This document shows positions 4,289-51,580 of a stretch of DNA of 64,000 nt, piece by piece (the first letter of the stretch is position 1; each line of letters begins with the position of its first letter). The notes below the pieces were generated by a model, which made no database searches, had not been told where the DNA came from, and saw nothing but the letters and a program-made list of their open reading frames with translations. The stretch spans positions 4,360 through 68,359 of the forward strand of contig JBAYKT010000007.1 in NCBI GenBank assembly GCA_041664445.1. The letters run 5' to 3'. Position numbers and translations under genes: made by a program. The stretch comes from Patescibacteria group bacterium (lineage in GTDB: Bacteria; Patescibacteriota; Patescibacteriia; Patescibacteriales; UBA12465).

Positions 4289-5584
4289 TTAATAAGCAAG
4301 TTTCTTTAAGCTTTCCAAGTCTTTTTTTATGGCTTCAACCAGTAATTCCGGATTCGCAAACTTTTCTAGTTCCCGTATTTTGCCCAAGACTTCAACTTGA
4401 AGAATTTCACCGTAAATATCATTTGCAAAATCAACAATTAAAATCTCTAGTGAAACTTCTTCTTTAAAAACATCTTTAAAGCCAAAATGCATCAAACCGG
4501 AATATGATTTATTATCAAAAATTATCTTCACGGCATAAACGCCATGAACAATATCCAAATCGGTTTTATCCAAATTGGCCGTCGGATATCCCAATAGCTT
4601 TCCTCTCCCCTGGCCATGAATTACTTTAGCGGAAAAAATTGTTTTTTTAGTCCGACCTAAAACAGAAATTTTATAAAAAGCGAATAATAAAACCGCGAGC
4701 GCTGTCAGCTGCATCCAGTTTAAATAGTTATGATTAAAAACATAATCTAAAACTAAAGCGGAAAAGGGCCAAAATAATTCCAAAATGGTTGCCGCAGAAG
4801 CCGGAACGCGCCGCAAACCGAAATAATAAATAAACATGGAACCAGCACCGCTCGTTAAAACAATTAAGCCTAATAAGCTCCACTGCTTAACGCTCACCAG
4901 CGATAAGGAGCCAAAAGAACCACTAACTAAAACTAGGACAATTGCCAAAATTGAAGTTAAGCCAAAACGCAGAGCGGCGACCGCCTTGTAGTCAAGATGA
5001 TTAGAAATCCGCTTGCCAAAAACTGTGGACGAACCAAAAGCAAAGGCGGCAATAAACGCGAATAAGGCACCATTATGCAGCCAGTTTATTTCCCAAAAGT
5101 CAGCCCCCAAATTGGCAAAAGCAATAAAATAAGAAGCGGCAATGGCAGCCATCGCCCAGCCATAGAATTTTTTGGGAAGTTTCTCGCCCAAAATTAAACG
5201 CGCTAGCAATAGAGCAAAGATTGGTTGTAATTTTTGCAAGATGACGACGGTGGCAAAACTAACTTCCCCGTCCATTGCCGCAAAAAAAGCTTTAGTAATA
5301 AAAACCGTCCCAATTAAACCACCGAATAAACTAACCCAGCCAAGAGCTAGCCAACTTTTGCGGCTCAAAGTTTTTATCTTTGGCCAAAAAATAAAAACAA
5401 AAGGCGAAAGCACTATAAATCCTAAAAGATGCTCCAACATAACTACTAGTTCGGCCGGTAAAACGTAAAATTGCGGTCTAATAAATAAGCCGTCAATACT
5501 CCAAAACAAAGCAGCGAGCATAATCGCCAAAGAACCAGCTATTTGCCCAGGCCTAAACCTTAACTTTAAATTATTTACAGACAT
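4289..5584 (-). CDS. Fusion protein: EamA/DMT-type transporter (about 10 TM helices) + C-terminal riboflavin kinase domain
   Basis: The first ~300 aa are polytopic and hydrophobic with a two-EamA-repeat look. The last ~125 aa carry riboflavin kinase signatures (VIHGQGRGKLLGYPTANL, HGVYAV, LEILIVDFANDIYGE, KIRELEKFANPELL). No FMN adenylyltransferase domain is present. Confidence 0.8.
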   Translation of the reverse strand: MSVNNLKLRFRPGQIAGSLAIMLAALFWSIDGLFIRPQFYVLPAELVVMLEHLLGFIVLSPFVFIFWPKIKTLSRKSWLALGWVSLFGGLIGTVFITKAFFAAMDGEVSFATVVILQKLQPIFALLLARLILGEKLPKKFYGWAMAAIAASYFIAFANLGADFWEINWLHNGALFAFIAAFAFGSSTVFGKRISNHLDYKAVAALRFGLTSILAIVLVLVSGSFGSLSLVSVKQWSLLGLIVLTSGAGSMFIYYFGLRRVPASAATILELFWPFSALVLDYVFNHNYLNWMQLTALAVLLFAFYKISVLGRTKKTIFSAKVIHGQGRGKLLGYPTANLDKTDLDIVHGVYAVKIIFDNKSYSGLMHFGFKDVFKEEVSLEILIVDFANDIYGEILQVEVLGKIRELEKFANPELLVEAIKKDLESLKKLAY

Positions 5585-5923: not shown

Positions 5924-7702
5924 ATGCCCATCCTCCTGCAAGTGAACAACTTAAGTAAGGAATATAGCGGTCAAAAAATATTTTCCGGCCTGTCTTTTGC
6001 CGTCTCGGAAAAACAGAAAATCGGTGTTATCGGCCGCAATGGCGCCGGCAAATCAACGCTATTCAAAATAATTAGCGGCGAAGAACAGGCGGATAATGGC
6101 GAAACCATTGTTCATGAAGAGGCCAGTATTGGCTATTTGAAGCAAAATCCTGATTGGCTAGATACAGAAAGTGCTTTAGATTATCTGATTAGACAAAGTG
6201 GCCGACCGGAATGGCGAGCGCGCCAGTTAGCCAGTAAATTTGAGCTAGATGCCGATAAACTAGCACAAGCCGCTAGTGGGCTCTCCGGAGGCTGGCGCAT
6301 GCGTCTACGTTTAACAGCTATGCTTCTTAAAGAACCGAACCTCTTCTTATTGGATGAGCCTAGCAACTATTTAGATTTAAACACGCTCATTCTTTTGGAA
6401 GATTATTTAAACTCTTATCGCGGCAGTTTTTTAATAATTTCCCATGACCGTGAATTCTTAAAACGAACTTGTAAGGAAACCATTGAAATTTCTAAAACTG
6501 GCTGTTATCACTACCCCGGTAATATTGAGGCTTATCTAGCGTTTAAAGAACAGAAGCTAAGCACTCTTATCAAAGCTAACGAAAGCTTAGAAAGGCAACA
6601 ACAACATTGGCAAGAATTTGTTGATCGCTTTCGCTACAAAGCGTCTAAAGCTAAGCAGGCACAAGCCGTAATCCGCAAAATCACTAAGCTGGAAGCTAAG
6701 CGCATAACCATTGAGCATGAGGCTGGCATTACTCGCATTATTATCCCGCCAATCGCGCGTAAAAATAATTTTGCCTTAAAAATAAACGAGCTCAGTATTG
6801 GTTACGGTAATCAGCGTGTGGTTACGAATATTGATTTCGACTGCCGTTCCGGAGAAAAATTAGCGATTTTGGGCCTCAACGGCAGCGGCAAAACCACTTT
6901 AATAAAAACCCTGACCGGAAAATTAAACCCTTTGGCCGGTTCTTTCCGTTTGGCCGCTAATAGCCGCTTAGCTTATCATGGCGAAGAAGAAATAAGTCAC
7001 ATGAACGGCCAAGAACAAGCCGGTGATTTTTTGCGGCGAATTGCGTCCGGCGATTTAAAGACTGAAGCGGTTCTAAAAATGGCTGGTGATTTTTTATTTT
7101 TCGAAGAAGACTTAAAAAAACCGATTTCTGTTCTTTCCGGCGGTGAACGTTCGCGCTTATTGCTCGCCGGACTGCTCTTGTCTAAACCGGATATTCTAAT
7201 TTTAGACGAACCGACTTGCCATCTGGATTTTGAAACTACCGAAGCGCTAGCCGGTGGCTTACATAAATTTAACGGCACCGTGCTCTTCGCTAGTCATGAT
7301 CGGACTTTTGCCAGCCTCATTGCCACCGGGATTGTAGAAATAAAAAATGGTCTGGCAAAAAGAAAGCATGAAGATTATGAAGATTACGTTATTGCCTTAG
7401 AAAAAGAGTTAGCCCAGAAACGTGTTCTGGAAAAAACTGCAGCACCGGAAATAAAGGCCGAACTGAAATCCGACGATAGAAAAAAGTATCTAGAAAATAG
7501 AGCTCGCCAAAAAGAAATCCAAGCTTTAGAAAAAGACTTAAGCAAAATGCAAGCTTATAAAAATGAGTTATTGGAATATTTTTTGGAACACTATGAAAAC
7601 TACCGGCCAGAAAAAGTAGCGGAACTAGAAGAACTTAAACGCCGCATCGCCGATAAAGAAGACTTGTGGCTAATGCTGAGCGAAGAAAATAAAGAAAACT
7701 AA
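5924..7702 (+). CDS. ABC-F family ATPase (two ABC domains, no TM domain)
   Basis: Two Walker A motifs (GRNGAGKST, GLNGSGKTT), two signature motifs (LSGGWRMRL, LSGGERSRL) and two Walker B motifs (LLDEPSNYLD, ILDEPTCHLD). Charged coiled-coil C-terminal tail. Confidence 0.9.
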   Translation: MPILLQVNNLSKEYSGQKIFSGLSFAVSEKQKIGVIGRNGAGKSTLFKIISGEEQADNGETIVHEEASIGYLKQNPDWLDTESALDYLIRQSGRPEWRARQLASKFELDADKLAQAASGLSGGWRMRLRLTAMLLKEPNLFLLDEPSNYLDLNTLILLEDYLNSYRGSFLIISHDREFLKRTCKETIEISKTGCYHYPGNIEAYLAFKEQKLSTLIKANESLERQQQHWQEFVDRFRYKASKAKQAQAVIRKITKLEAKRITIEHEAGITRIIIPPIARKNNFALKINELSIGYGNQRVVTNIDFDCRSGEKLAILGLNGSGKTTLIKTLTGKLNPLAGSFRLAANSRLAYHGEEEISHMNGQEQAGDFLRRIASGDLKTEAVLKMAGDFLFFEEDLKKPISVLSGGERSRLLLAGLLLSKPDILILDEPTCHLDFETTEALAGGLHKFNGTVLFASHDRTFASLIATGIVEIKNGLAKRKHEDYEDYVIALEKELAQKRVLEKTAAPEIKAELKSDDRKKYLENRARQKEIQALEKDLSKMQAYKNELLEYFLEHYENYRPEKVAELEELKRRIADKEDLWLMLSEENKEN

Positions 7703-22152: not shown

Positions 22153-22410
22153 TCAAGTAAACCAACCCTCGGTAAAACCAAGACCCAGTTTTTTTTCAAA
22201 TACGCAACCCCTATCTTTCATTTTTGGTTGCGAACGAATGAAATCCAATGGTTTGAAAAGATCAATTTGGTGGCCATTTTTGCCGTTATTCATAAACGAA
22301 CCAAGGCCGCCTCTCATAAAGATTTCAAAATCTACAATGGTCACGCCACCGCCGACCAGGATTCCTCCTTGAGGAATACCAAAGCCGATTTTTATATTTC
22401 TATTTTTCAT
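22153..22410 (-). CDS. Hypothetical Gly-rich small protein
   Basis: 85-aa ORF whose ATG overlaps the stop of the upstream iPGM-like gene by 11 nt, an operon-like arrangement. No motif recognised. Confidence 0.4.
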   Translation of the reverse strand: MKNRNIKIGFGIPQGGILVGGGVTIVDFEIFMRGGLGSFMNNGKNGHQIDLFKPLDFIRSQPKMKDRGCVFEKKLGLGFTEGWFT

Positions 22411-23302
22411 CTACTAAACTAATGCCAGACATGCCGGCGTCTTTTTCTATACCCATTAAATTTAAAATAGTCGGAGCAATATCTGATAAACTGCCGGCCG
22501 GAGCCAATAAACTCAAATCTCCGTTCGGAGCATCTTTAAAACCGATTGTTTTACCTTCAAAATCATGACCGATAATAATTAGAGGGACTGGATTGTCAGT
22601 AATGTTTTTATCAGGCAGGTCGGTCACCATATCCTTCAGGCGCTCGGCATTGCCGGCGCTAGAAGAGATAATTAATATGCCTTGATGGTCTAAAACTTCC
22701 GCGGCTAACGATTTAAGAGCTTTATCTAAAGCTTCGGCTGTTTTAACAGTTTCGGCAAAATCTCCACTAGCGGCCATAATATCTAAAGCTGAACAAGCGG
22801 CGACAATAAAATTATATTTTCTACTCTTAACAGCCTTCACTGATTCACGAAAAATTCTTTTTAAAGCCAGAAGAACATTAATCTCCTGTTTGTCGTCTTC
22901 CAGAGAAATAGAAAGCCAATCCTCGCCAATCAGACGTTCTTCGCGACGGCCATTAAAAAAACTGCTCAAAGCCGCCAAACGTTCACTATCAAAAATTTTC
23001 AATTGTTTTAAACCGGCATCGGAAATTATGGAACTTAAATCTTTGCCGACAGCCTGTGTTTCATCGCTAACGGCGAGTCCACTGCCTAAAATTAAATAAC
23101 GCGCATTAATATTAAGCGCGTTGGCTTCTAAAATAGCGGCCGGATATTCTTTAGCCATTTTAGAAAAATTAGGAATACGAGCGCTGCTAATAGCGTTGGC
23201 TTCATTTTTTTCAGCAATCCCCCAGCCATCAAGCAACAACAAAAAAACTAAATTGGATTTAGAACTTAAATCAGGATTGTCGGACGCTTCATTTTTTTCC
23301 AT
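22400..23302 (-). CDS. Truncated, degenerate cofactor-independent phosphoglycerate mutase (iPGM)-like protein
   Basis: LLLLDGWGIAEKNEANAIS..ARIPNF aligns to the iPGM N-terminus. GLKQLKIFDSERLAALSSFFNGRREE, NPVPLIIIG and DIAPTILNLMGI align to the iPGM C-terminal phosphatase half. At 300 aa it lacks the ~230-aa transferase insert of the ~510-aa canonical enzyme. Confidence 0.7.
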   Translation of the reverse strand: MEKNEASDNPDLSSKSNLVFLLLLDGWGIAEKNEANAISSARIPNFSKMAKEYPAAILEANALNINARYLILGSGLAVSDETQAVGKDLSSIISDAGLKQLKIFDSERLAALSSFFNGRREERLIGEDWLSISLEDDKQEINVLLALKRIFRESVKAVKSRKYNFIVAACSALDIMAASGDFAETVKTAEALDKALKSLAAEVLDHQGILIISSSAGNAERLKDMVTDLPDKNITDNPVPLIIIGHDFEGKTIGFKDAPNGDLSLLAPAGSLSDIAPTILNLMGIEKDAGMSGISLVDEK

Positions 23303-24554
23303 AATTTTCTAAAATATCAGCAATTTCCATTAAGCGATTATACTTTACTACCCGTTCTCCTCGAGATAAAGAACCGGCCTTAAGATAATCTGCCCCCAGA
23401 GCTACCGCTAAATCCACCAGGAAATCATCAGTAGTTTCCCCGCTGCGCTGAGAGACAATAATTTTAAAATTATGCTTATTGGCCAATTTTACACAATCCA
23501 CAGCCTCCGTCAAGGTGCCAACTTGATTTGGCTCAATAATAATGGAATTAGCAGCCTTTTCTTGAATGCCAAGACGCAAACGATCAATGTTAGTGGTAAA
23601 TAAGCTGTCGCCGGCAATCATTAACTTGTCTCCCATTTCGGAAGTTAAATTGCGCCAATTCTCCCAATCATTTTCAGCTAGCGGATCTTCTAAATAAATA
23701 ATCGGATATTTTCTTAACCAAGAATCATATAAACCGACAAGATTGGCGGCGCTAAAATAAGTTTTATCCAAGGGAAAAATATAACGCTTAGTTGTTTCTT
23801 CAAATAAAATATTGGAACCAATATCAATCCCTATCCACATATCTTTACCAGGGTTATAGCCAGCACGAATCGCAGCCGCTAACATAAATTCTATCGCTTC
23901 AATGCTAGAATCTAAATTAGGCGCATACCCGCCCTCAGAACCAGTGTCAGTATCATAACCGGCGGCCTGTAGTTCTTCTTTAAGGGCATAAAAAATCTCC
24001 GCGCCCTCGCGAATCATTTCCGCAGCGGTATTTTTTTTCGGAATAAGTAAGAATTCTTGAAAATCCAAATTAGTATCAGCATGAGTTGCGCCATTAAAAA
24101 TATTAAAAAACGGCACGGGAATCTTCGGCGCCGCTAAGGAGTAGGTTTCTTGTAAGTAGGAAAACAATTCTTGCTTCTGACTCAAGGCGCCAGCGCGGGC
24201 GCAAACCAAAGAAACGGCCAGAGTAGAATTGGCTCCCAAATGGCTCTTATCATTAGTGCCATCAAGTTCAATTAACTTTTTATCAATGGCTTCTTGTTTT
24301 AAAATATCAAATCCAATAAGCGCCGGGGCGATAATTTCCTTTATTTTAGTAAGCGCCTGCAAAACACCGCGGCCCTGATAACGTTTTTTATCGCCATCAC
24401 GCAACTCAAAGGCTTCATAAGTTCCGAGCGCCAAACCTCCAGGAACACTGGCCTTAGCCTGCAAGCCATTATCCAGCAGGATGCTAGCTTCAATCGTCGG
24501 CCAGCCGCGAGAATCTAAAATTTCTCTAGCACTTAAATTTTTTATTTTTGGCAT
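23289..24554 (-). CDS. eno: Enolase homologue (non-canonical active site)
   Basis: Full-length similarity to enolase: REILDSRGWPT, ELRDGD, QEF, SEGGYAPN, LEDPLAENDW, NQVGTLTE, RSGETTD, KYNRLMEI. Several catalytic positions are substituted (see findings). Confidence 0.85.
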   Translation of the reverse strand: MPKIKNLSAREILDSRGWPTIEASILLDNGLQAKASVPGGLALGTYEAFELRDGDKKRYQGRGVLQALTKIKEIIAPALIGFDILKQEAIDKKLIELDGTNDKSHLGANSTLAVSLVCARAGALSQKQELFSYLQETYSLAAPKIPVPFFNIFNGATHADTNLDFQEFLLIPKKNTAAEMIREGAEIFYALKEELQAAGYDTDTGSEGGYAPNLDSSIEAIEFMLAAAIRAGYNPGKDMWIGIDIGSNILFEETTKRYIFPLDKTYFSAANLVGLYDSWLRKYPIIYLEDPLAENDWENWRNLTSEMGDKLMIAGDSLFTTNIDRLRLGIQEKAANSIIIEPNQVGTLTEAVDCVKLANKHNFKIIVSQRSGETTDDFLVDLAVALGADYLKAGSLSRGERVVKYNRLMEIADILENYGKK

Positions 24555-24564: not shown

Positions 24565-25740
24565 TTAAACTACAATTTTTTTAAGTCCCGGCATTGGCGC
24601 TCCACCCAAATAGGAAAGCATGGCGCCACCGGCCGTTGAAACCCAATCGACATATTCCATCATCCCCGTCATCTTCAAAGCAGACACTGTTTCACCGCCG
24701 CCAGTAACGCCATAAGCGCGACCTCGAGAACGAGCGGCAATTATCATAGCTAAAGAAATGGTGCCATTTTTAAAATGGGGGTCTTCAAATTTACCCATCG
24801 GACCATTCCAAATAATAGTATTGGCTTCTTTGATATATTCGGCGTATAGACTGACGGTTTCTGGCCCAATATCAAAAATGCAATCGGTTTTGGTAACAGC
24901 ATCAGCCTTCTTGGATAATATTTTTCCATTTTTAGTTTTAACAACCACATCTAAAGGTAAAATAATTTTTTTATCGCGAGCCTTGCCGTTTAATAATTTC
25001 TTAACGACCAGCATTGAACCGGCATCAAATAATGATTTTCCAATTTCTAATTTTTTAAACTTTAAAAAATTATTAGCTAGACCGCCACCCAAAAGAATAT
25101 GGCTCGCCTGCGGATAAAGCTTGGCGATTAAAGCCGCTTTGGTTTCTATCTTAGCGCCGCCCATCATTACTACCAGAGGTTTTTTGGGAACTAATATTTT
25201 ATGCAAAGCTTTAAGTTCTTGTTCTAATAAAATTCCGGCATAAGCAGGCAGATAATCTTTGATAGCCGCAACCGAAGTCTGGGCGCGATGGGAAACAGCG
25301 AAAGCATCATTAACATAAATATCCGCTAAAGTGGCCAACTGTTTCGCAAAAGCCTTATCATTTTTAGTTTCTCCTGGATTAAATCTAACATTTTCTAAAA
25401 ATAATATTTCCCCGGCCTTCATTTCATTAACAGCCGCTTCAACCTTGGGCCCGACAATGGCGGGCACAAATTTAACCTTTAAATCCGCTATTTTGGCTAG
25501 ACGCGCCGCTAAAGGCGCGGTTGATAAAGATTTAAGAGTTTTACCGTTTGGCTCTCCCAAGTGCGTAATGATTATCAGCTTAGCGCCTTGAGACGATAAA
25601 TATTTTATTGTTTCCAAGCCAGCGCTTATTTTATAATCGTCTTTAATTTTTCCCTTTTCTAGTGGGACATTAAAATCAACCCGTACTAAAAATTTCTGAT
25701 TACTAATTTTTTTTAAACGGCTAATAGAATTAATTTTCAT
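24565..25740 (-). CDS. pgk: Phosphoglycerate kinase
   Basis: RVDFNVPL, LENVRFNPGE, DAFAVSHRA, GGAKIETK, WNGPMGKFE, GGGETVSA, STAGGAML. Confidence 0.9.
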   Translation of the reverse strand: MKINSISRLKKISNQKFLVRVDFNVPLEKGKIKDDYKISAGLETIKYLSSQGAKLIIITHLGEPNGKTLKSLSTAPLAARLAKIADLKVKFVPAIVGPKVEAAVNEMKAGEILFLENVRFNPGETKNDKAFAKQLATLADIYVNDAFAVSHRAQTSVAAIKDYLPAYAGILLEQELKALHKILVPKKPLVVMMGGAKIETKAALIAKLYPQASHILLGGGLANNFLKFKKLEIGKSLFDAGSMLVVKKLLNGKARDKKIILPLDVVVKTKNGKILSKKADAVTKTDCIFDIGPETVSLYAEYIKEANTIIWNGPMGKFEDPHFKNGTISLAMIIAARSRGRAYGVTGGGETVSALKMTGMMEYVDWVSTAGGAMLSYLGGAPMPGLKKIVV

Positions 25741-30166: not shown

Positions 30167-30859
30167 TTATTTGTGAATAAAAACTTGCAGGCCGACATCT
30201 ACCCGATCAAATAAATATTGTGCCGGTCCGACGCCCAAGCGAATGCAGCCGTGAGAAACTGCTTTTCCTAAATGATTTTCGCCCTCACGATAGCCGCTAG
30301 GCCAAACCGGAAGTTCATGAATGCCGATACGGCCACGGTCCAGACCTAGCCAAAAAGGCATCCAGAGACTATAAGTTTTAGACCACGCTTTTTTAATCCG
30401 ACTCACAACCGTAAAAGTCCCCGTGGGTGTCGGCATACTGGGCTTACCGGTAGAAACCGTAAATTCTTTCCAAGCTATTCCGGAAACAAAATAAGTAAGC
30501 TTTTGCTCTTTTAGAGATATATCTACTTTTTGAGTTAACTTCTTAGTGGAGGTGGAGAGCGGGTCAAAGGCGAAATCAATTTCTGCAAAATCAGAATAGC
30601 CGTCAGCATCGGTATCGGCTAAAAGTGGATTGGTCTTAAATTTAATTTCCAAATCATCACTCAAGCTATCCTTATCAACATCGCTCTCGGTAATTTTTAT
30701 CGACTCAACATTAAAAGGCGACCAACCATTTTTTATTTCTATGTCATCAGTATAACCATCGCCGTCGGAATCGACGGCTTCTTCGGCTTTTAGGGTTTTT
30801 GGCCCTAAGACAAAAAACGCCAGCAACAACAAATAAATTATAAATTTTCGATATTTCAT
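30167..30859 (-). CDS. L,D-transpeptidase (YkuD domain) with thrombospondin-type-3-like Ca-binding repeats
   Basis: Signal peptide MKYRKFIIYLLLLAFFVL. Repeats DSDGDGYTDDIE, DVDKDSLSDDLE and DTDADGYSDFAE. Catalytic HELP...SHGCIRL. The ATG overlaps the upstream stop (TAATG). Confidence 0.8.
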   Translation of the reverse strand: MKYRKFIIYLLLLAFFVLGPKTLKAEEAVDSDGDGYTDDIEIKNGWSPFNVESIKITESDVDKDSLSDDLEIKFKTNPLLADTDADGYSDFAEIDFAFDPLSTSTKKLTQKVDISLKEQKLTYFVSGIAWKEFTVSTGKPSMPTPTGTFTVVSRIKKAWSKTYSLWMPFWLGLDRGRIGIHELPVWPSGYREGENHLGKAVSHGCIRLGVGPAQYLFDRVDVGLQVFIHK

Positions 30860-32439
30860 TATTTTTGTTTTTTGATAATTGAATATTCGCAGCCGCAAAA
30901 TTTTTGACGATACATTTTTAATTCCTTGGCTAATTCTTGCGAGCGTCGATAAGCATCATCAGCTTGAAAATCTTCATCTAAAAATTTAATTCCCTTCTCG
31001 GCGGCTAACTTCCGCGACATCTTAACAATCGCTTCTTTATCTTTATAAGGACTAACGGTTAAGGAGGTGGCAAAAAAATCAAATTTTTTAGCGACCGCCA
31101 AATTAACGGTCGCGCGCAGGCGGTCTAAATAACAAATTTGGCAACGGGCGCCGCGCTCCGGGTCTGCTTCCCGCCCCTTTACCAACTCACACCAATTCTG
31201 ATGTTCATACGGAACGACGATTAACGGAATGGAAAATTTGGCCGCCATTAATTTTACATATTGTAGGCGTTTATCATATTCCTCTTGGGAAACTAAATTA
31301 GGGTTATAAAAAAACCAAGTTAAGCGGTAACGCGGCAACAAGCGGACGCTACTGATATAAGTTGCGCAGGGCGCACAGCAAATATGCAAGAGCAAAGATG
31401 GTTTCAATTTTTCCTGGCGCTTATCCAAAAATTGAAAAATAATAACAATCGCCAACATAATTAATAACAGTAGCAGCAACACCAAAAGCTTTCCTCGGCT
31501 CTGAAGAAATAAACCGCTTAAACCGAAAACTAGAGAGAAAAAATAAAATACCAAAACTGTTTGCCGCTGATTTAAACCTAAATTTAAAAGCCGATGATGA
31601 AGATGTTTATTGTCGGCAAAACGAAAAGGGTTTTTACCTTGAAAAAGACGCCTCATAATTGTCCAGGCGACATCTAAAATGGGGATACCCATGATTAATA
31701 AGGCAATCGCAATCTTTCCGCCGGAAATAATTGCCAAAACACCCAAGGCATAACCAAAAAATAAAGAACCGCCTTCGCCCAAGAAAATTTTAGCCGGGTA
31801 AAAATTAAAAATTAAAAATCCGAGCGCGGAACCCAATAAAATCACGGCCGCCAAGGCAATATCCGGTTGAAAATATTTAGTGGTCAGCGTAAATAAAAAA
31901 ATCACTAGTGCACCAATCGCTCCGACCCCGCTTACTAAACCATCAACTCCATCTAAAAGTTTAGTGGTGTACATCATTCCTAAAAGCCATAAAGCGATTA
32001 AAGCCGGTCCGACAATTACCAAATCTTTAAGATAAATAAAACCACCCAAAGGATTGGTAATTTTTTCAATTTCGACGCCGCCAATAACGATAGCTAAAAT
32101 GGCCAGTAACGGAAAAATGATTTGCCATTTGGCTGACAAATTATATTTGTCATCCAAAATACCGCCGCTAATAATGAGTAGCGCGCCAATAAAAAATCCC
32201 AGCAAATGCCGCCAGTCTAAATTTCCTGCTAAAAAACGGTCGGCATATAAAAATAAAATGGCAAAAAAAGACAAAAAAACAGCCACCCCGCCCAAGAGCG
32301 GTGTCGCCTTAACATGAATCTTGCGCTCCCCTGGTTTATCAACCAAATTAAAACGAAGCGCGATTTTTTTAACGCCCACTGTCAAAATCAGAGCTAAAAT
32401 AAAACTGGCTAAAAATGGCAGAATATAAGTTGAAAACAT
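30859..32439 (-). CDS. Fusion protein: polyprenyl-phosphate sugar-1-phosphate transferase (WecA/MraY, GT4 family) + QueH (DUF208) epoxyqueuosine reductase domain
   Basis: N-terminal ~340 aa: LVDKPGERKIHVKATPLLGG, DDKYNLS, NFYPAKIFLGEGGS and multiple TM helices. C-terminal ~185 aa: LLLHICCAPCATY, FFYNPNLVSQEEY, ERGARCQICY, MYRQKFCGCEYS. Single uninterrupted 526-codon frame. Confidence 0.8.
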   Translation of the reverse strand: MFSTYILPFLASFILALILTVGVKKIALRFNLVDKPGERKIHVKATPLLGGVAVFLSFFAILFLYADRFLAGNLDWRHLLGFFIGALLIISGGILDDKYNLSAKWQIIFPLLAILAIVIGGVEIEKITNPLGGFIYLKDLVIVGPALIALWLLGMMYTTKLLDGVDGLVSGVGAIGALVIFLFTLTTKYFQPDIALAAVILLGSALGFLIFNFYPAKIFLGEGGSLFFGYALGVLAIISGGKIAIALLIMGIPILDVAWTIMRRLFQGKNPFRFADNKHLHHRLLNLGLNQRQTVLVFYFFSLVFGLSGLFLQSRGKLLVLLLLLLIMLAIVIIFQFLDKRQEKLKPSLLLHICCAPCATYISSVRLLPRYRLTWFFYNPNLVSQEEYDKRLQYVKLMAAKFSIPLIVVPYEHQNWCELVKGREADPERGARCQICYLDRLRATVNLAVAKKFDFFATSLTVSPYKDKEAIVKMSRKLAAEKGIKFLDEDFQADDAYRRSQELAKELKMYRQKFCGCEYSIIKKQK

Positions 32440-32773: not shown

Positions 32774-35461
32774 TTATAATTCTGCGGCCTTCTCAATGAT
32801 TATTTCCGCTTTATTATTAATTACCACCTGGTCTCTTCTTTTTAACTCACCGGCTAAAATTTTATTAGCCACCGCATCTTCAACCCGTTCCTGCAACAAG
32901 CGACGTAAAGGACGCGCGCCAAATTTAGGATCATATCCGGCCTTGGCTAAAATAGTGACTCCGTCTTTATCGGCCTTTAGTCCGATTCCCTTGTCCGCCA
33001 GTATCTTTTTAATCTTCTTGAGCATCAAGGTCGTAATCGTAAAAATATTTTCCTCATTTAGAGGCTTAAAGACGATGATGCCGTCAAAACGATTAATAAG
33101 TTCCGGGCGCATATGCTCGCGCAACTGATTATCAATCAATTCCTGCTTAATAATATTTAGGCTGGTCTGAGCTTTAATCTGATCTTGAATAAAGATGGCG
33201 CCGATATTGGAAGTGGCGATAATGATTGATTCCGCAAAACTGATAGTTCTCCCCTGCCCGTCGGTCAATCGACCATCGTCCAACATTTGTAAAAATAAAT
33301 TTAAAATATCGGGATGAGCTTTTTCTACTTCATCCAACAAAACCAAAGAAAAAGGCTTTTTCCGAACAGCCTCCGTTAGATATCCTAAAGTCCCATCAAC
33401 ATCGCCAATCATTTTACGAACACTGTCTTGATTTTGATATTCACTCATATCCAAGCGAATCAGATAATCCTCACTACCAAAATAAATCGCCGAAACCGCT
33501 TTAGCGAGCTCAGTCTTACCGACACCGGTCGGGCCTAAGAATAAGAAGCTAGCAATCGGTCGCTTGCTATCTTTCATCGCTGCGCGCGCTCGGCGCAAAC
33601 TGGCTGAAACCGCCTTCACCGCCTCTTCTTGACCGACTAAACGTTCGTGAATTTCTACTTCTAAATTGAGCAATTTTTGACCCTCATCCGCGCTCACTTT
33701 ATTAACCGGGATGCCAGTCATCTCCGAAATAGCGGAAGCAATATCTTCTTTGGAACAAAAAGTTTTTTCCGGATTGTTTTTACTGGCTACAGCCGCAATC
33801 ATTGCTGCTTTTTCCAATAAGTCGATAGCCTTTGAAGGTAAAAACTTATCATGCAGATAACGCGCAGACATTTTCACGGCCTGTTCAATGGCACTATAGA
33901 CGATGTAGGTATCATACTTTGACTCCAAAAATCCGACGCGGCTTTCCAAAATTTGAATAGCGGCGTTAGTATCTGGCTCACTGATGCCAATCGTTGTCAT
34001 CACCTCTCCCAAAGATTTTTTCTCAATGTAGCGCGTATAGTTTTCAGCTGTGGCGGTCGCAATACATAGAATATGATTCTTAGATAAAGCTTCGGCTAAA
34101 ACTTCCGATAAGTCCAAACTTTCCTGACTGCCGGCGCTAATGCCAATTAAATTTTCAATATTATCAATAAATAAAATAACATTTCCAGAACGGTTAGCCT
34201 CATTAATACAATCCAATAGCCTTTCTTCGGCCACCGAAGGATTCGCTCCACTAACCAATTTGGAAACCTCCAGCTCCACCAAACGCTTATCTCTCATAAA
34301 ATCAGGCACATTTTCCTCAACCATCATCTGCGCGACACCACCGACAATTGTACTTTTACCAATACCAGTTGGCGCCACTAATAAAACGCCATTATGGCCG
34401 CCGGTAAAAATATCAAAAATTGCTTGAATTTCCTTATTGCGGCCGACGCATAAATCTAGATGCCCAAATTTAGCTTTTAAAGTTAAGTCAACGGCGAAGT
34501 GATCTAAAACCGGAGTAGCAATAGCGGTATAAGAACGATTCATCCCCGAACTGGGCTTAAAGAGCGCCAGCTGGCGATAAGCATGATAACGAGCGACTAA
34601 TAATTTATTGACCCTAAACCATTCCACGGCATTGGTAATTTTATCGGCATCAACTTCCAAATCATACATAATTTCCGCGAGCGCCGGGTCCCGTTCATAA
34701 CAAAATAAAATTATATTTAAAACATCAATGCTTTTTTGTTTCAAATTAAAGGCGTCTTGAAAAGCTAACATAAAAACTTCTTGAAGCCTATCGGAAATTT
34801 GATCATCGCCTACAGGATCTTTAGCGCTCTTAACTAACTGACGGTCAATCATCTCAATCATTTTTTTAGCATCAACATTTAGACGAATAAAGAGACTTTG
34901 AATCTCTTTGGTTCGAAGCGCCGCTCTAAAAAAATGAATAATGTCTATTTGTTTGCGATGTAATTTGCCGGCCAAAAGGAAAGCCTCTTCCAGGATTCTA
35001 TTTGTCTCGTCAGAAAAAGCGCGCGCGGCATTATAACGCTGTCTTGATTCGCGTTTAATCTTTTTATCTTCCCTAAAAAATCGATAATTTATTTTTTTAG
35101 CGCCGGCCACCGCCAAACTAAATTTATAAAAAAGAAATAAATCAAACCATAAAGACAGGAGAAAAAAAGCCACCAAAATATCCGGGCTGGACCAAAAAAA
35201 TAATATTTTTAAAGGATCGGCTTCCAAACTAGCGCGATTCAAAAATATCCAAGCCGCGAAAGCAAACCAGCCAGCAAAAATAATCAACCAAGAAAAAAAG
35301 CCTAAAATTTTATTAATCTGTTTTTCGGCCCGTTCCAAGGCGATTACCGATTTCTTAATTTTTTTATCCCAATATAAAAAGCGACCTAAAAACCAGGCCC
35401 CCCGCCCCTTAGCGGCGGTATCTTTCACAAATTCCAATTGTTCCCTGTTTCTCAAGTCCAT
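32774..35461 (-). CDS. Membrane-anchored Hsp100/Clp-family double AAA+ ATPase (no M-domain, degenerate D1)
   Basis: N-terminal ~120 aa with 2-3 TM helices (FFSWLIIFAGWFAFAAWIFL; ILVAFFLLSLWFDLFLFY). D1 has Walker A APTGIGKS and Walker B LFIDNIEN. D2 has [31 protein letters not shown] and GARPLRRLLQ. Confidence 0.8.
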   Translation of the reverse strand: MDLRNREQLEFVKDTAAKGRGAWFLGRFLYWDKKIKKSVIALERAEKQINKILGFFSWLIIFAGWFAFAAWIFLNRASLEADPLKILFFWSSPDILVAFFLLSLWFDLFLFYKFSLAVAGAKKINYRFFREDKKIKRESRQRYNAARAFSDETNRILEEAFLLAGKLHRKQIDIIHFFRAALRTKEIQSLFIRLNVDAKKMIEMIDRQLVKSAKDPVGDDQISDRLQEVFMLAFQDAFNLKQKSIDVLNIILFCYERDPALAEIMYDLEVDADKITNAVEWFRVNKLLVARYHAYRQLALFKPSSGMNRSYTAIATPVLDHFAVDLTLKAKFGHLDLCVGRNKEIQAIFDIFTGGHNGVLLVAPTGIGKSTIVGGVAQMMVEENVPDFMRDKRLVELEVSKLVSGANPSVAEERLLDCINEANRSGNVILFIDNIENLIGISAGSQESLDLSEVLAEALSKNHILCIATATAENYTRYIEKKSLGEVMTTIGISEPDTNAAIQILESRVGFLESKYDTYIVYSAIEQAVKMSARYLHDKFLPSKAIDLLEKAAMIAAVASKNNPEKTFCSKEDIASAISEMTGIPVNKVSADEGQKLLNLEVEIHERLVGQEEAVKAVSASLRRARAAMKDSKRPIASFLFLGPTGVGKTELAKAVSAIYFGSEDYLIRLDMSEYQNQDSVRKMIGDVDGTLGYLTEAVRKKPFSLVLLDEVEKAHPDILNLFLQMLDDGRLTDGQGRTISFAESIIIATSNIGAIFIQDQIKAQTSLNIIKQELIDNQLREHMRPELINRFDGIIVFKPLNEENIFTITTLMLKKIKKILADKGIGLKADKDGVTILAKAGYDPKFGARPLRRLLQERVEDAVANKILAGELKRRDQVVINNKAEIIIEKAAEL

Positions 35462-36032: not shown

Positions 36033-38672
36033 ATGTTTAATAAATTTACCGATAAATCCCAGGAAGTAATTATTAATTCCCAGGCAATCGCCTCTAATTA
36101 CGGCCAACCAAATATTGAAGCGGTTCATATTCTGCTAGCGCTTCTAGAGCAAAATGAGGGCTTAGTAAAACCGATTCTAGAAAAAATGAAAATTGACCCG
36201 GAGTTAATGGAAGAAAAAATTATCAAAACTATTAAAACTCTGCCCCAAAGCCGAATAAACCAAACGCCCGGACCGGTGCAAGCCGTATCCGGAACCGCCG
36301 AAACGGCCGCCGTTTTAGAAAGAGCGCAAAAAGAAGCAGATGGCATGAGTGATGAGTTCATCTCCACCGAACATATTTTACTCGCGCTTATCGGCGTCTC
36401 TTCCCCGGCCCAAAGAATTTTGCTGGATTTTAAAGTTGAGTACCAAGAAGTTAAAAATATTTTAAAGGAATTACGCGGCTCACAAACCATTACCGATCCT
36501 TTTCCGGAAAATAAATTCCGCGTCTTAGAAAAATATACCACCAATCTTACCGAATTAGCTCGCCAAGAAAAATTAGATCCAGTTATCGGACGTGATATGG
36601 AAATCCGCCGCATTATGCAAGTTCTGCTGCGTCGCACTAAAAACAATCCGGTACTTATCGGCGAAGCCGGAACCGGCAAAACCGCGGTGGTAGAAGGTCT
36701 AGCGCAAAGAATCGTGTCTGGCGATGTTCCAGAAAATTTAAAAAATAAAGAAATTATTGCTTTGGATTTAGGCTCAATCGTTGCTGGCGCTAAGTTTCGC
36801 GGCGAATTTGAAGACCGCTTAAAAGCAATTTTAAAAGAAGTTAAATCGCAAAATGGCCGCTTAATCTTATTTATTGATGAACTGCATACTTTAATCGGTG
36901 CCGGCGCCTCTGAAGGCTCCATGGATGCTTCTAACATGTTAAAACCGGCTCTCGCCCGTGGTGAACTGCGAACTATCGGCGCCACCACCACTAAAGAATA
37001 CCAAAAATATATTGAAAAAGATGCTGCTCTCGAAAGACGCTTCCAGCCGATTTATGTTTCCGAACCCAGCATTGAAGATACTATCAGCATGCTCCGTGGC
37101 CTCAAAGAAAAATATGAGGTTCATCATGGTGTTAGAATTACCGATAATGCCTTGATTGCCGCCGCCAAGCTGTCGCATCGCTATATCAGCGACCGTTTTT
37201 TACCGGACAAAGCTGTAGATTTAATTGATGAGGCGACTTCTTCCCTACGTATGGAAATTGATTCCATGCCGGATGAACTCGACCAATTAAAGCGTAAAAT
37301 AAACCAACTAGAGCTTAACAAAGCGGGTCTCATGACGACCGATAAAAAATCATCAAAAATCCGTGCTATTAATCAAGAACTTGCTAAAATTAAAGAAAAA
37401 TCAACACAATTAGAACTTCACTGGAACAACGAAAAAAATATTATTTCTCAAATCAGAACTTCCAAAAAAGAAATGGAAGACTTAAAAATCAAAGCTGAAA
37501 TTGCTCAAAGACAAGGAGCTGACTTAACTGAAGTTGCTAAAATAAAATATGGCCTAATTCCTGAGTTGGAACACGGAATAGACAACTTGCAAGAAGAGCT
37601 GTTGAAAATTCAAAAAAAGGGACAACGAATTCTTAAAGAAGAGGTGGATGAGGAAGATATTGCTAAAGTAGTTGCTCGCTGGACCGGAATTCCGGTCAAC
37701 AAAATGTTGCAGGATGAAATTAAAAAATTAAGCGATGCCGAAAAAGAACTCAATCAAGAAGTAGTCGGGCAAGAAGAAGCCATCAAGGCGGTTGCTAACG
37801 CCTTAAGAAGATCGCGTGCCGGCATCAACGAAGAAAAACGCCCCATTGGTTCTTTTCTATTTGTCGGACCGACCGGTGTCGGCAAAACCGAACTCGCCAA
37901 AACCTTGGCCAAGTTTATGTTTGACGACGAAAAATCATTAGTTCGTTTAGATATGAGCGAATTCATGGAAAAGCATTCGGTTGCTAAACTGATTGGCTCG
38001 CCTCCGGGTTATGTCGGCCATGACGATGGCGGCCAACTAACCGACAAAGTCCGCCGCCACCCTTACAGCGTTGTCTTGTTTGATGAAATCGAAAAGGCAC
38101 ATCCGGATATGTTTAACATCCTGCTGCAAATCTTAGACGATGGCCGGCTGACTGATTCCAAGGGACGAATGATTAATTTCAAAAACACCATCGTCATTAT
38201 GACCTCCAACCTCGGCAACGAAGTAATTAAACATTATTCCATCGGTTTTAATGACGAAAGCGATAAAAAAGAGGCCTCCAAGCTACGTGAAGGAGAAATG
38301 AAAGAAAAAATAGATAAGATTCTTAAAGAAAATTTCAAACTGGAATTTTTAAATAGAATCGATGAGATTGTTCTCTTCCATAGCTTGTCGCCGGAAGCGC
38401 TAGAGAAAATAGTTGATTTAGAATTGAATAAAGTTGAGAAACGACTGGCCAATAAAAATATCAGCGTTAAAGTCGGCCCGAAAGTCAAAAAAATGTTGGC
38501 GCAAAAAGGTTATGACATCACTTACGGTGCCCGACCGTTAAAGCGCATCATCCAAAATTTGATTTTAGATGAACTAGCGCTAGAAATTATTGAAGGTAAA
38601 ATCAAAGAAGGCGCCAAAGTAAAAATAGACTTGGGGGAACCGGAAAAAATAATTATTAAAGCCTTAAAATAA
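36033..38672 (+). CDS. clpB: Chaperone ClpB (Hsp100 disaggregase with full-length M-domain)
   Basis: Clp_N repeats, [25 protein letters not shown]1 [15 protein letters not shown], a ~130-aa coiled-coil M-domain, D2 [31 protein letters not shown]. Confidence 0.93.
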
Positions 38673-43440: not shown

Positions 43441-43512
43441 GGTCTCTTCGTCTAACGGCTAGGACGCCAGGTTCTCATCCTGGTAATAGGGGTTCGATTC
43501 CCCTAGGGACTA
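43441..43512 (+). tRNA. tRNA-Glu (anticodon CTC), integration target
   Basis: GGTCTCT-TC-GTCT-AACGGCTA-GGAC-G-CCAGG-TTCTCAT-CCTGG-TAAT-AGGGG-TTCGATT-CCCCT-AGGGACT-A. The acceptor stem has two G-U pairs. Confidence 0.85.
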
Positions 43513-43513
43513 C
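43468..43513 (+). repeat. attL core (within the intact tRNA-Glu)
   Basis: caggttctcatcctggtaataggggttcgattcccctagggactac is identical to 58546-58591. Confidence 0.9.
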
Positions 43514-43543
43514 AGAATAAGAAATGGGCTAAAAGCCTGTTTT

Positions 43544-44659
43544 TTATTGGGTTTTTTGAAGTATTTTAGTTTCCAGTAAATCAGAAACTAAAATATTTTT
43601 ATCATTAATTATCGGAGCGGTGACTAAATGTTGACCAAAATTATTAGCCAAGGTCTCAACCGCACCCCTTACAGCTTGAGCGGTTAGGTGAGAATAGCGC
43701 ATTGTTGTCTTAATGTCAGCATGTCCCAGTAACTCTTTAATTAGAACAATAGAAACCCCATTCTGAGCTAAGTGAGAGGCAAAGGTATGTCTTAAGGTGT
43801 GCCAACCTATTTTACGCAACCCAGCTCGGTTACAGGCTCGGTGCAACCAGTTTAAACATAAAACTGGATTAAGATGATTGCCGTCTTTATCAAAGGCTAT
43901 CCCATGCTTTTTGGCCCTTAAAATAATAAGCTCTTTAACATCTCCCAATAATGGGACATATCTAATCTTGTTACTCTTAGGACTTCCCAAATGCCCCCTA
44001 GCGATTGATTTCTGAACAGTTAATAGATTGCCCTTAAAATCAATATCATTCCATTCTAAGGCAATTAACTCTCCAAAACGAAGCCCAGTTTTAAGACCAA
44101 AAAGAATCATCTCTTTTAACATCCCGTCAGAATTATCTAATAATAACTGACATTCCTCTGAACTAAGAAAATCAAATTTTTGCGGCTGAACCTTTAGAAG
44201 TTTAACTTTAGGAGTATTTTGAATTATTCCCCATTCTTGAGCAGTATTAAAACATTTGTTTAGAACAATTAAATGATTGTTAACACTTTTATTAGACTGG
44301 CCTGACTGTATTTTATTAGCCTTATAGTTTTCAATATCTAGGTTACTAATTTTATCTAATTGTTTTTGGCCAAAGAATGGATTTAAATGGGCCCTAAGTA
44401 AACTTTCTTTATTTAGAATTTCTGAATATTTATTATTGTTCTTAACATACACTTCAAGCCAATTATCAGAGAATTCTTTAAAAGTTGGGACTGCCTTTTG
44501 CTCTTCTACTATAGGCTCTCCGCGTGCTAGCTTCTGTCGCAATAAAGCCTCATAAGCCTTAGCCCCGGCCTGAGTATTCTGCGGGCTAAGTTTACGATAT
44601 CTTTTATTTTGGCAATAAATACTTACCCAGTATTTATTCTTATTTTTATAAACGCTCAT
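43544..44659 (-). CDS. int: Tyrosine recombinase / phage-type integrase
   Basis: N-terminal SAM-like domain. Catalytic domain with GLRFGEL (Arg), HTLRHTFASHL (H-x-x-R) and LLGHADIKTTMRYSHL (His/Tyr). Confidence 0.92.
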   Translation of the reverse strand: MSVYKNKNKYWVSIYCQNKRYRKLSPQNTQAGAKAYEALLRQKLARGEPIVEEQKAVPTFKEFSDNWLEVYVKNNNKYSEILNKESLLRAHLNPFFGQKQLDKISNLDIENYKANKIQSGQSNKSVNNHLIVLNKCFNTAQEWGIIQNTPKVKLLKVQPQKFDFLSSEECQLLLDNSDGMLKEMILFGLKTGLRFGELIALEWNDIDFKGNLLTVQKSIARGHLGSPKSNKIRYVPLLGDVKELIILRAKKHGIAFDKDGNHLNPVLCLNWLHRACNRAGLRKIGWHTLRHTFASHLAQNGVSIVLIKELLGHADIKTTMRYSHLTAQAVRGAVETLANNFGQHLVTAPIINDKNILVSDLLETKILQKTQ

Positions 44660-44667
44660 ATAATTTA

Positions 44668-44865
44668 TTAGACGACTGCATCAATACGAGCATTATCTAT
44701 ATACTTTTCAATATCAGATATTTTAAATCTCAAACTGCCACTTATTTTATAAAATGGTATTTTGCGTTTTTCTATTAATCTATACACCGAAGGCTTGGAC
44801 ATTCTTAAAATTGAAGCCAGCTCATCAGGTGTTATTAAGTTGTTCGTATTGGAAACGTCGTTCAT
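44668..44865 (-). CDS. xis: Excisionase-family HTH DNA-binding protein
   Basis: 65 aa. LITPDELASILRMSKPSVYRLIEKRKIPFYKISGSLRFKISDIEKYI is the HTH_17/excisionase pattern. Located directly upstream of int. Confidence 0.8.
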   Translation of the reverse strand: MNDVSNTNNLITPDELASILRMSKPSVYRLIEKRKIPFYKISGSLRFKISDIEKYIDNARIDAVV

Positions 44866-44966
44866 TTAGTTATTAAGGAGCGATATAAGGCGAGTTAATT
44901 AAAACTCGTAGACAATATCGATCCTAACATATTTTTATGAGAATTTACATATTTTTGTTTTCCAGC

Positions 44967-45410
44967 TTAGTATTGACTTAGCTGTTTTTGGTCTGAATCA
45001 CCGTGTTTTAAAAAGGTATTTTTAAAATATTCATTAACATAAGCATTGCGAGCCGCGTATTCTGATGCTGGGTCAATTGTCTGATTATCATTAAACATCC
45101 CTAAAGACTTACCTATCGCAATAATGGCTTGGAGTTTGGTGCTGTCTGATTTAGCTTCCTCGGCTAGTTGTTTTAATTTTGCTAAAACATAGTTGGCATC
45201 TAGCTCTAAAACAGCAAATCTCTCCTTTAGATACTCCCGGATCTTAGCGTTCCTGAGCAATCTTGAAGCGTTAACGGCTGCCGTATTATCATCAAGTTCT
45301 TGACCATACACGGCCTTATAAGCAATCGTCCCATTTCGATTGGAGATTATATACTGCTCGGCAAATATGATTTGCTTATCAACTATTTTTGGTTTATTAA
45401 TCTGATTCAT
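44967..45410 (-). CDS. Terminase small subunit-like protein (P27-family-like)
   Basis: 147 aa. KQIIFAEQYIISNRNGTIAYKAVYG...AAVNASRLLRNAKIREYL matches the N-terminal HTH pattern of small terminases. Confidence 0.55.
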   Translation of the reverse strand: MNQINKPKIVDKQIIFAEQYIISNRNGTIAYKAVYGQELDDNTAAVNASRLLRNAKIREYLKERFAVLELDANYVLAKLKQLAEEAKSDSTKLQAIIAIGKSLGMFNDNQTIDPASEYAARNAYVNEYFKNTFLKHGDSDQKQLSQY

Positions 45411-45413
45411 AAC

Positions 45414-45599
45414 CTTGTTATTTGTTAACTGCTTGTTAAATATTCTTTAACAAATAAATTTGTTTAATATTAGTTAATTACGATTTCAGGTTATTAAAAT
45501 TCCCCAGAAGAAGGTGATATATCTTGGTTTACTAATAAACCAAGAATATTCTTCTTGTTAACTTGTTAACCTATATATAGATATTAACAAGTAACAAGC
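45414..45599. repeat. Iteron-like repeat cluster ((C/T)TTGTTAA(C) in both orientations) plus a 9-bp-stem hairpin
   Basis: Direct copies of TTGTTA(A) start at 45415, 45422, 45433, 45555 and 45563; TTGTTTAA starts at 45461. Inverted copies lie at 45447-45454 and 45583-45599 (two adjacent). Hairpin CTTGGTTTA-CTAA-TAAACCAAG at 45523-45544. Confidence 0.6.
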
Positions 45600-45601
45600 T
45601 G

Positions 45602-46696: not shown

Positions 46697-46756
46697 ATAA
46701 GTCTCTAATCACGCGGCAGAGAACGGATTAATACCGCCCTCTGCCGAAAAATTATT

Positions 46757-47014
46757 TTACTCCTCGGTACCATAGAATATGCTCGTCACCTCTCTGTCTG
46801 GTAAATCTAAAAATTTTCCACAAATAATATCATCCAAATGGCTCCGAAGTGATCCAAATGAATTTTCTGAAACAAACCACTTTTTCTCCCAAAACATTTT
46901 TGGAAGTTTTTCCTTTAGTACTGAGAAAAGCTTATTATTTGCTTTAATGACTTCTTTAGTTGCATCTCCTATAATTTTCCACTCCTCTAAACTTAGCTCT
47001 ATATTTTTATTCAT
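46757..47014 (-). CDS. Hypothetical small protein (island)
   Basis: 85-aa ORF upstream of the RepA-like gene on the same strand. Confidence 0.45.
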   Translation of the reverse strand: MNKNIELSLEEWKIIGDATKEVIKANNKLFSVLKEKLPKMFWEKKWFVSENSFGSLRSHLDDIICGKFLDLPDREVTSIFYGTEE

Positions 47015-47330
47015 ATATTTATGAAATTAATAATTAATTTGTTATTCGAGAGGCTTCGCAACCTATCGATAGACCGCGAAGCCTAGTTGTCTCGAATGGA
47101 AACATTTTGTTTCCTTTGTATAGACCTCGTCAGCTAAATAGATATTTCCAAAATGAGTTAAATTTCTAAAATACACAGAACTTTAGAGATTCAGCATTCA
47201 TTCCAGAAATTATAAATTCATGGGCCTCGATATGTAATCCTATCCTTCATAAAGTAATTTAGCTCGTTTATAAACAATTCAATAATTTCGTTAGTCTTCA
47301 TACTATATATGCACGAAATTTCGCTTAAAT

Positions 47331-47365
47331 AAAAAAAATCCACTAATTTTAAATGAATTAGTGGA
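47331..47365 (-). terminator. Rho-independent terminator of the 48867-47398 operon
   Basis: TCCACTAATT (47339-47348) pairs with AATTAGTGGA (47356-47365). A T8 run follows on the minus strand (plus-strand A-run 47331-47338). Confidence 0.75.
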
Positions 47366-47397
47366 ATTATACTCGAAAAAACGCAGGCGAAATTTCG

Positions 47398-48228: not shown

Positions 48229-48232
48229 CTAA

Positions 48233-48535: not shown

Positions 48536-48561
48536 ATTTTTATAAATAGAGTCTTTTATTG

Positions 48562-49318: not shown

Positions 49319-49460
49319 ATTATTCTATACTATTTTGCGGTCACAACGCAGAAATGCGTGGCAATACAGGGCAAAATGTTTTAGAATTTTTTAATAAAAT
49401 ACCGCCTAGGTCGAGGGTGGTATTTTTTTAATTATTTAATATAACAACCCGATCAATAAT

Positions 49461-51543: not shown

Positions 51544-51580
51544 TTTATTTTATATAGTAACTTATATATTTTTAAAAAGA

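Follow-up and report, generated by a model that had tools for sequence, protein, structure and literature searches.

An enolase orthologue of groundwater Falkowbacteria with a replaced general base and an altered second-metal site, a candidate pseudo-enolase

Few enzymes are as conserved as enolase, and a match to it is taken by annotation pipelines as proof of the glycolytic step. Does this hold for a gene found in a 64,000-nucleotide stretch of a Patescibacteria group bacterium (assembly GCA_041664445.1, contig JBAYKT010000007.1, positions 4,360 to 68,359 of the forward strand; the whole stretch is called the window below)? An original prediction, made by eye from the sequence, had described the product of this gene as a full-length enolase homologue with substitutions at the catalytic base and at other active-site residues. 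The gene is the following.

23289..24554, minus strand: variant enolase gene, 421 aa (open reading frame (ORF) list, Pfam, TIGR01060, Protein Data Bank alignment, AlphaFold2 (AF2)/Foldseek)

The full-length homology was borne out by Pfam, TIGR01060, the alignment to the solved structure 4a3r and the AF2 fold. Pfam assigned Enolase_N (PF03952, 159.7 bits) and Enolase_C (PF00113, 269.2 bits), both over their full length, and the protein scored 491.5 bits on the NCBIfam equivalog TIGR01060 (cut-off 300). HMMER alignments to solved enolases ran from end to end, the top match being 4a3r from Bacillus subtilis (E=2.6e-113, about 45% identity). The check by a structure model, proposed with the original prediction, gave a confident AF2 model (predicted local distance difference test, pLDDT, 94.5; predicted template modelling score, pTM, 0.93) with an enolase fold. 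In Foldseek this model matched 4a3r with a template modelling (TM) score of 0.95 and a root-mean-square deviation of 1.4 A, and its top 50 matches were all enolases. The protein is identical to MFA6417051.1, deposited at NCBI as "phosphopyruvate hydratase". The source lineage is groundwater Falkowbacteria, belonging to the Candidate Phyla Radiation (CPR), and the close relatives in Candidatus Falkowbacteria are S5_I03 (locus L010, 99% identity) and the closed 977-kb chromosome CP066698.1 (locus L011, 95% identity).

The protein passes the equivalog cut-off and yet lacks the catalytic base and the second-metal site. The HMMER alignments to solved enolases were ungapped around all three motifs quoted in the original prediction, so the register drawn by eye was right and a register error is ruled out. 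In these alignments IIIEPNQVGTLTE pairs with ILIKVNQIGTLTE, which makes the equivalent of Lys345 a Glu, SQRSGETTD pairs with SHRSGETED, which makes the equivalent of His373 a Gln, and VPGGLALG pairs with VPSGASTG, which leaves the L1 loop altered. The codons named earlier for the first two replacements were exact, and no Lys was placed at the position of the base. The third replacement had been read as Ser39 to Gly. The loss of the Ser ligand stood, whereas its assignment did not: Ser39 is the second Ser of PSGASTG and its equivalent is Ala, the Gly replacing Ser36. The altered positions are listed below.

23532..23534, minus strand: GAG, Glu at the position of the general base Lys345 (HMMER and family alignment, codon check)
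23448..23450, minus strand: CAG, Gln at the position of His373 (HMMER and family alignment, codon check)
24429..24431, minus strand: GCG, Ala at the position of Ser39, the sole direct protein ligand of Mg(II) (PMC4450660)
24438..24440, minus strand: GGA, Gly at the position of Ser36, L1 loop
23604..23606, minus strand: Ser replacing Asp321, the residue that positions the two Mg(II)-site waters (PMC4450660)
24084..24089, minus strand: Ala-Thr in place of Gly157 and the family-typical Lys preceding His159, L2 loop

In characterized enolases, the C2 proton is removed by Lys345 as general base, with Glu211 as the general acid, while Ser39 is the only residue bound directly to the catalytic Mg(II) and Asp321 positions the two waters of this ion (PMC4450660). 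The claim that replacement of Lys345 abolishes activity agrees with work on the M. tuberculosis enolase, in which the Ala mutant at the Lys345 equivalent (K335A) is non-functional, as are E163A, E204A and D241A (the Glu168, Glu211 and Asp246 equivalents), while S42A, altered at the Ser39 equivalent, has about 5% activity and still converts phosphoenolpyruvate (PEP) to 2-phosphoglycerate (2-PGA) without Mg(II) (PMC10619443). Yeast K345A, as cited in PMC4450660 (Poyner et al., 1996), is an engineered base-less enolase. The same positions are altered in these mutants and in the Falkowbacteria protein. Unlike the engineered K345A, K335A and S42A, however, the latter is natural and fixed, carries Glu instead of Ala at the base, combines several changes and is under purifying selection.

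Compared with the canonical bacterial enolase (EC 4.2.1.11, 4a3r), the two-domain architecture, the fold and the Mg(I) ligands are common, and pgk is adjacent, whereas Lys345 is replaced by Glu, Ser39 by Ala, Asp321 by Ser, His373 by Gln and Gly157 by Ala. The Mg(I) ligands Asp246, Glu295 and Asp320 (D244, E289 and D316 in the query) are kept and are invariant in all 121 sequences of the family set described below. Retention of these ligands, of Glu168 and of Lys396 had been stated in the original prediction and was confirmed by the family alignment, in which Glu211, His159, Gln167, Arg374 and Ser375 are kept as well. His159, Gln167, Arg374, Ser375 and Lys396 bind the phosphate and carboxylate groups of 2-PGA and PEP, and all five are invariant in the clade of the query. 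The general acid Glu211 thus remains together with Glu168, while His373 is Gln; since H373Q recurs in otherwise canonical relatives, this last change may be tolerated. No new Lys, His or Tyr that could replace the base was found at conserved active-site columns of the query clade. The only new Lys, G192K, lies on a helical stretch that other enolases do not conserve, and a replacement base elsewhere in the protein is ruled out on these grounds.

The query and its 120 nearest homologues (66-99% identity, all Patescibacteria) were taken as the family set. Position 345 is Lys in 115 of these 121 sequences, Glu in four and Ala in two, and position 373 is His in 109; most relatives being canonical, a general CPR trait is ruled out. 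When extended with cluster members, the K345E clade comprised 13 distinct sequences, all with Gly36, Ala39, Ala157, Ser or Ala at 321, and Glu345. Outside this clade, all 117 relatives have Gly157. Gln373 is confined to the subclade of the query (6 of the 13 sequences, query included). The suggestion that the K-to-E, H-to-Q and S-to-G changes might define a clade as a triad was therefore right in part: K345E and S39A mark all 13 sequences, H373Q only six.

In a neighbour-joining tree, which is a simple distance tree, the K345E clade is sister to a K345A pair (P0005/P0007, locus L008) in which all other active-site residues are canonical. The codons at position 345 are GAA or GAG in the K345E relatives, GCG (Ala) in the sister lineage and AAA or AAG in canonical relatives; the path AAG to GAG to GCG fits a single ancient loss of Lys followed by a change from Glu to Ala. 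Other variants in the family are E211L (P0107/P0112), H373Q/S, S39P/L/I/V/T, S375N/G and H159Y, so that each lineage loses different residues. The K345A sister and these variants share with the query the Falkowbacteria-type family (66-74% identity), the synteny and an otherwise conserved protein, whereas loss of the base combined with loss of the Mg(II) site occurs only in the clade of the query. Altogether, 27 of the 121 sequences, in at least 10 separate lineages, deviate at one or more of 12 canonical active-site positions.

Among 76 enolases from other phyla no change was seen at any of 14 active-site positions, and Lys345 was present in all 76. Of the 150 nearest representatives of 50%-identity clusters, 35 had some change, while position 345 was Lys in 149 and Arg in one. 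In these alignments Glu at position 345 is very unusual, even for odd enolases. A literature search found no paper on a natural Lys345-substituted enolase or on active-site erosion in CPR enolases.

Two variant groups call for separate mention. At loci L090 and L091 (enolase at 6001-7251) the motif GxEGG reads GELGG, with Glu211 replaced by Leu and a Glu one residue earlier; Ser39 is replaced by Val or Thr as well, the synteny is the same as that of the query and purifying selection persists. Among the distant cluster representatives E168D recurs together with H373A (seven sequences) or H373G (one sequence). These eight (P0141, P0198, P0225, P0231, P0236, P0241, P0249 and P0256) may represent another natural active-site variant family.

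Is the gene then decaying? The ratio of nonsynonymous to synonymous substitutions (dN/dS) was calculated by the method NG86 for two pairs, the query against S5_I03 (L010) and the query against CP066698.1 (L011).

eno: dN/dS 0.014 (L010), 0.035 (L011)
gyrB: dN/dS 0.014 (L010), 0.022 (L011)
pgk: dN/dS 0.042 (L010), 0.054 (L011)
tim: dN/dS 0.038 (L010), 0.054 (L011)
iPGM relic (described below): dN/dS 0.047 (L010), 0.070 (L011)

With values similar to those of gyrB and below those of pgk and tim, eno is not decaying, and since the frame is intact as well, a pseudogene or relaxed selection is ruled out. The amino-acid identity of eno was higher than that of pgk and tim in every within-clade pair. 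The 117 relatives share 225 columns with a conservation of 90% or more. About 19 of these differ in the clade, mostly conservatively, and the non-conservative changes include S39A, G157A, D321S/A, K345E and H373Q. The 13 clade sequences vary at 105 of 416 positions, yet all 14 retained active-site residues are the same in every one of them (P ~0.016 under the assumption of equal sites). With the neighbouring PDZ protein as the yardstick, eno roughly doubled its rate on the branches between the K345E and K345A lineages, and within the K345E clade it is slower than pgk: a modest burst, then stasis. The substitutions are fixed in the clade and kept under strong purifying selection. The E211L pair P0107/P0112 is likewise under purifying selection, with a dN/dS of 0.076 for eno against 0.126 for pgk (dS above 1).

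A sequencing or assembly artefact is ruled out too, because the identical protein is present on independent ENA, Logan, JGI and NCBI assemblies (four data sources) and because the Glu codon varies synonymously between GAG and GAA among the relatives.

The neighbouring genes bear on both the identity of the gene and its likely function. On the same strand the cluster runs PDZ-domain protein, pgk, eno, a 300-aa gene of the Metalloenzyme family and an 85-aa ORF, and the gene for triosephosphate isomerase (TIM), whose catalytic residues are intact, lies about 6 kb away. The genes adjoining eno are listed below.

24565..25740, minus strand: pgk, phosphoglycerate kinase (PGK), 10 nt upstream of eno
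22400..23302, minus strand: short protein of 300 aa derived from cofactor-independent phosphoglycerate mutase (iPGM), its start overlapping the eno stop by 14 nt
22153..22410, minus strand: 85-aa ORF, sharing 11 nt with the end of the iPGM relic

The order pgk, eno, short iPGM-like gene is kept in all related loci examined, with canonical and variant enolases alike, and pgk and eno likely form one operon. An ORF of 85-94 aa is found at the same place in all related loci; in the window it had no Pfam or NCBIfam match. Since the synteny from the PDZ gene to the small ORF is shared with canonical relatives, the query is an orthologue and not a stray paralogue, and a divergent paralogue is ruled out by the same observation. 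No other enolase-like sequence was found in the 64-kb window, to which the search was confined. The gene is thus the orthologous enolase of this Candidatus Falkowbacteria lineage, and the sole one detected in the window.

As a separate observation, the PGK encoded at 24565-25740 reads HLGEP for the usual HLGRP, with an acidic residue at the 3-phosphoglycerate-binding Arg, and GGGET for GGGDT. HLG[ED]P and GGGET occur in the PGK of most related loci examined, regardless of the state of the enolase.

The 300-aa neighbour would normally be expected to supply 2-PGA. It matched only the Pfam family Metalloenzyme and scored 123.6 bits on TIGR01307 against a cut-off of 330. When aligned to the G. stearothermophilus iPGM (1ejj), only residues 6-47 and 316-509 were covered; the whole transferase domain (about residues 77-310) and the segment with the nucleophile Ser62 are absent. 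The query relic carries H407A, D444S, H445A, H462I and K336R and keeps the equivalents of Asp12 and Asp403. Its model (pLDDT 89) matched the phosphatase half only, with TM of about 0.8 by query length and about 0.48 by target length. With iPGM it therefore has the phosphatase (alkaline-phosphatase-like) fold in common, and it lacks the transferase domain, Ser62 and most Mn ligands. The best 120 homologues of the relic are all 281-315 aa long and have invariant residues of their own. Among them His407 is Ala in 117, Asp444 is never Asp, His462 is never His and His445 is kept in 37, and more than 30 of the 120 lie on contigs equal in size to family-enolase contigs. Its labels differ, being hypothetical at NCBI and iPGM at JGI. 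These comparisons indicate that the relic is a conserved, family-wide pseudoenzyme across Falkowbacteria-type genomes. A relic of about 300 aa overlaps the eno stop at every locus examined. The overlap of its start with this stop suggests translational coupling, and with the adjacent iPGM dead the usual supply of 2-PGA is missing at the eno locus. Both the loss of Asp321 and the dead iPGM neighbour had been missed in the original prediction, and together they strengthen the case for its conclusion, namely that the protein has no enolase activity, works with a rearranged apparatus or has a different substrate. This conclusion, as it was worded, is supported by all tests at the sequence level, without a choice among its three options.

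By sequence, fold and synteny the query belongs to the enolase family, yet it lacks two of the defining catalytic features, the general base and the Mg(II) site. Clear enolase homology, replacement of essential catalytic residues and purifying selection after that replacement, as expected of a pseudoenzyme, are all present. To our judgement the chances are about even that it is a ligand-binding, non-dehydrating pseudo-enolase retained for a non-catalytic role. With the base Lys345 and both determinants of the Mg(II) site (Ser39 and Asp321) gone, the machinery for the first chemical step would have been lost, and 2-PGA would not be dehydrated at a useful rate. His373 was lost later and in the query's subclade alone, an order that would be expected once dehydration no longer mattered. 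What is kept is the fold and the Mg(I) ligands, along with Glu168, Glu211, Lys396 and the anchors for phosphate and carboxylate. In the likeliest working state the folded protein would still bind Mg2+ and, probably, a phospho-carboxylate (2-PGA or PEP, for example). Selection would then maintain it for binding, scaffolding or sensing. Such a role may involve the iPGM-derived pseudoenzyme, which gene overlap and synteny make a candidate partner, and a non-catalytic role shared by the enolase of the whole family would explain why different residues are lost in an otherwise conserved protein.

Enolase is known as a binding partner from the E. coli RNase E degradosome (5ohg, 2fym), from RibD-enolase (9no2) and from Csm/AcrIIIA2/enolase (9no4), and enolase complexes with RNase E, RibD and Csm/AcrIIIA2 were among the best fold matches of the query model. 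Further binding roles are those in surface plasminogen binding (PMC7435893) and in the plant assembly of phosphoglycerate mutase, enolase and pyruvate kinase (PMC7481185). The enolase fold has thus been recruited repeatedly for non-catalytic binding roles. In the partner-binding systems listed, however, enolase stays a competent enzyme, whereas in the query catalysis appears to have been given up.

Several points weigh against the pseudo-enolase reading. In other enzymes Glu can serve as a base towards carbon acids, and with Mg(I), Glu211, Glu168 and Lys396 intact some weak or altered catalysis would be chemically feasible. The strict invariance of the remaining catalytic residues is explained at least as easily by continuing catalysis as by ligand binding. 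The signs that suggest a pairing with the iPGM relic are gene overlap and synteny alone, and a second canonical enolase or another phosphoglycerate mutase may possibly be encoded outside the 64-kb window that was searched. Moreover, dS was 0.56-0.75 (NG86) in the informative pairs and approached saturation in deeper ones.

The most serious alternative is that the protein is still a working enolase, either slow or using Glu345 as the base (or as the acid in the direction from PEP to 2-PGA) with a single metal and no Mg(II) site. Although this must be taken into account, it is unlikely. It would fit the very strong purifying selection, the place of the gene in an operon with pgk and the invariance of the Mg(I) ligands, Glu168, Glu211, Lys396, His159, Gln167, Arg374 and Ser375 in a clade in which 105 of 416 positions vary; the residual activity of S42A, which converts PEP to 2-PG without Mg(II), provides a precedent for the loss of the second metal (PMC10619443), and the loss of Asp321 beside the new Glu could be a compensation of charge. 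On the other hand, K335A of the same M. tuberculosis enzyme is non-functional (PMC10619443), Glu345 has no natural precedent among the 150 representatives (149 Lys, one Arg) or the 76 enolases from other phyla, and the Ala345 of the sister lineage cannot serve as a base. Four catalytic determinants are altered, H373Q having been added later as if catalysis no longer mattered, and the adjacent iPGM that would supply 2-PGA is dead.

Two bolder proposals are, taken together, rather improbable: a lyase that would run enolase chemistry with Glu345 and one Mg2+, or an enolase and iPGM relic forming a pseudoenzyme pair with a non-metabolic job. For the former, in sequences that combine Glu345 with His373, the carboxylate-His pair on strands beta6 and beta7 might presumably act as the base, like the dyad of the mandelate-racemase subgroup. 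For the latter, catalysis would be optional within the pair, which would explain its repeated loss.

We are more doubtful still about a neofunctionalised enzyme whose pocket would have been remodelled for a different phospho- or carboxylate substrate and a different metal-dependent reaction. The substitutions at highly conserved columns do concentrate on the active site and its surroundings in an otherwise conserved protein, the L1 loop has turned hydrophobic (GGLALG), and the burst-then-stasis pattern of eno would be in line with a change of function. However, the residues that recognise the phosphate and the carboxylate of 2-PGA and PEP are unchanged, no new candidate acid or base appeared at a conserved column, and with a synteny identical to that of canonical relatives there are no new neighbour genes to hint at another pathway. 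Other lineages lose different catalytic residues (E211L, H159Y, S39X), which looks like loss and not like directed redesign.

That the gene is a decaying pseudogene, an artefact or a redundant paralogue beside a canonical enolase is highly improbable: CPR genomes are reduced, enolase is patchy across CPR (PMC7304191) and a second copy could lie elsewhere in the ~1-Mb genome, but the intact frame and the gyrB-like dN/dS (0.014-0.035) refute decay, the four independent data sources with the identical protein refute an artefact, and eno occupies the syntenic position of the family enolase, has a confident structure model (pLDDT 94.5) and is the only enolase in the 64-kb window.

The database label of the query as a working glycolytic enolase is, judging from these residues, probably wrong. 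The enolase label, together with the iPGM label on the relic, would lead metabolic reconstructions to wrongly close the path from 3-phosphoglycerate to PEP in these Falkowbacteria, which bears on the ATP generation of these episymbionts and on their source of PEP for cell-wall synthesis. If the protein is a pseudo-enolase, it would be a rare bacterial case of an orthologous and probably single-copy one under strong selection; if it is instead a lyase with Glu345 and one Mg2+, it would offer a natural alternative mechanism for a textbook enzyme. The natural series of canonical, K345A, K345E, E211L, H373Q and other enolases gives access to the question of why an enzyme of central metabolism is kept when catalysis is lost.

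A 494-aa protein encoded at 59857-61341 (minus strand) was considered as an alternative source of PEP. It contains only a C-terminal PEP-utilizers swivel (phosphohistidine) domain, with no family assigned to the N-terminal ~375 residues. It has no PEP/pyruvate-binding domain and scored far below the cut-offs for PEP synthase and pyruvate phosphate dikinase.

Further features of the window lie outside the eno cluster. Directly after a tRNA-Glu gene (43441-43513) come genes for a tyrosine integrase (43544-44659), a small terminase subunit (44967-45410) and an AAA_25 ATPase (45602-46696), and there are many unannotated ORFs besides these three genes in 43441-52450; this region resembles a prophage or integrative element inserted at a tRNA gene. 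Immediately beyond the putative integrated element lies a complete type I restriction-modification system (hsdS, hsdM and hsdR; 52669-58073, minus strand). Two fusion proteins were also noted. One, of 526 aa (30859-32439, minus strand), joins Glycos_transf_4 (MraY/WecA-type) to QueH (epoxyqueuosine reductase) and is kept in related loci; the other, of 431 aa (4289-5584, minus strand), joins an EamA-type transporter to a riboflavin kinase domain. Finally, two adjacent divergent genes encode ClpB-like AAA+ chaperones of 895 aa (32774-35461, minus strand) and 879 aa (36033-38672, plus strand).

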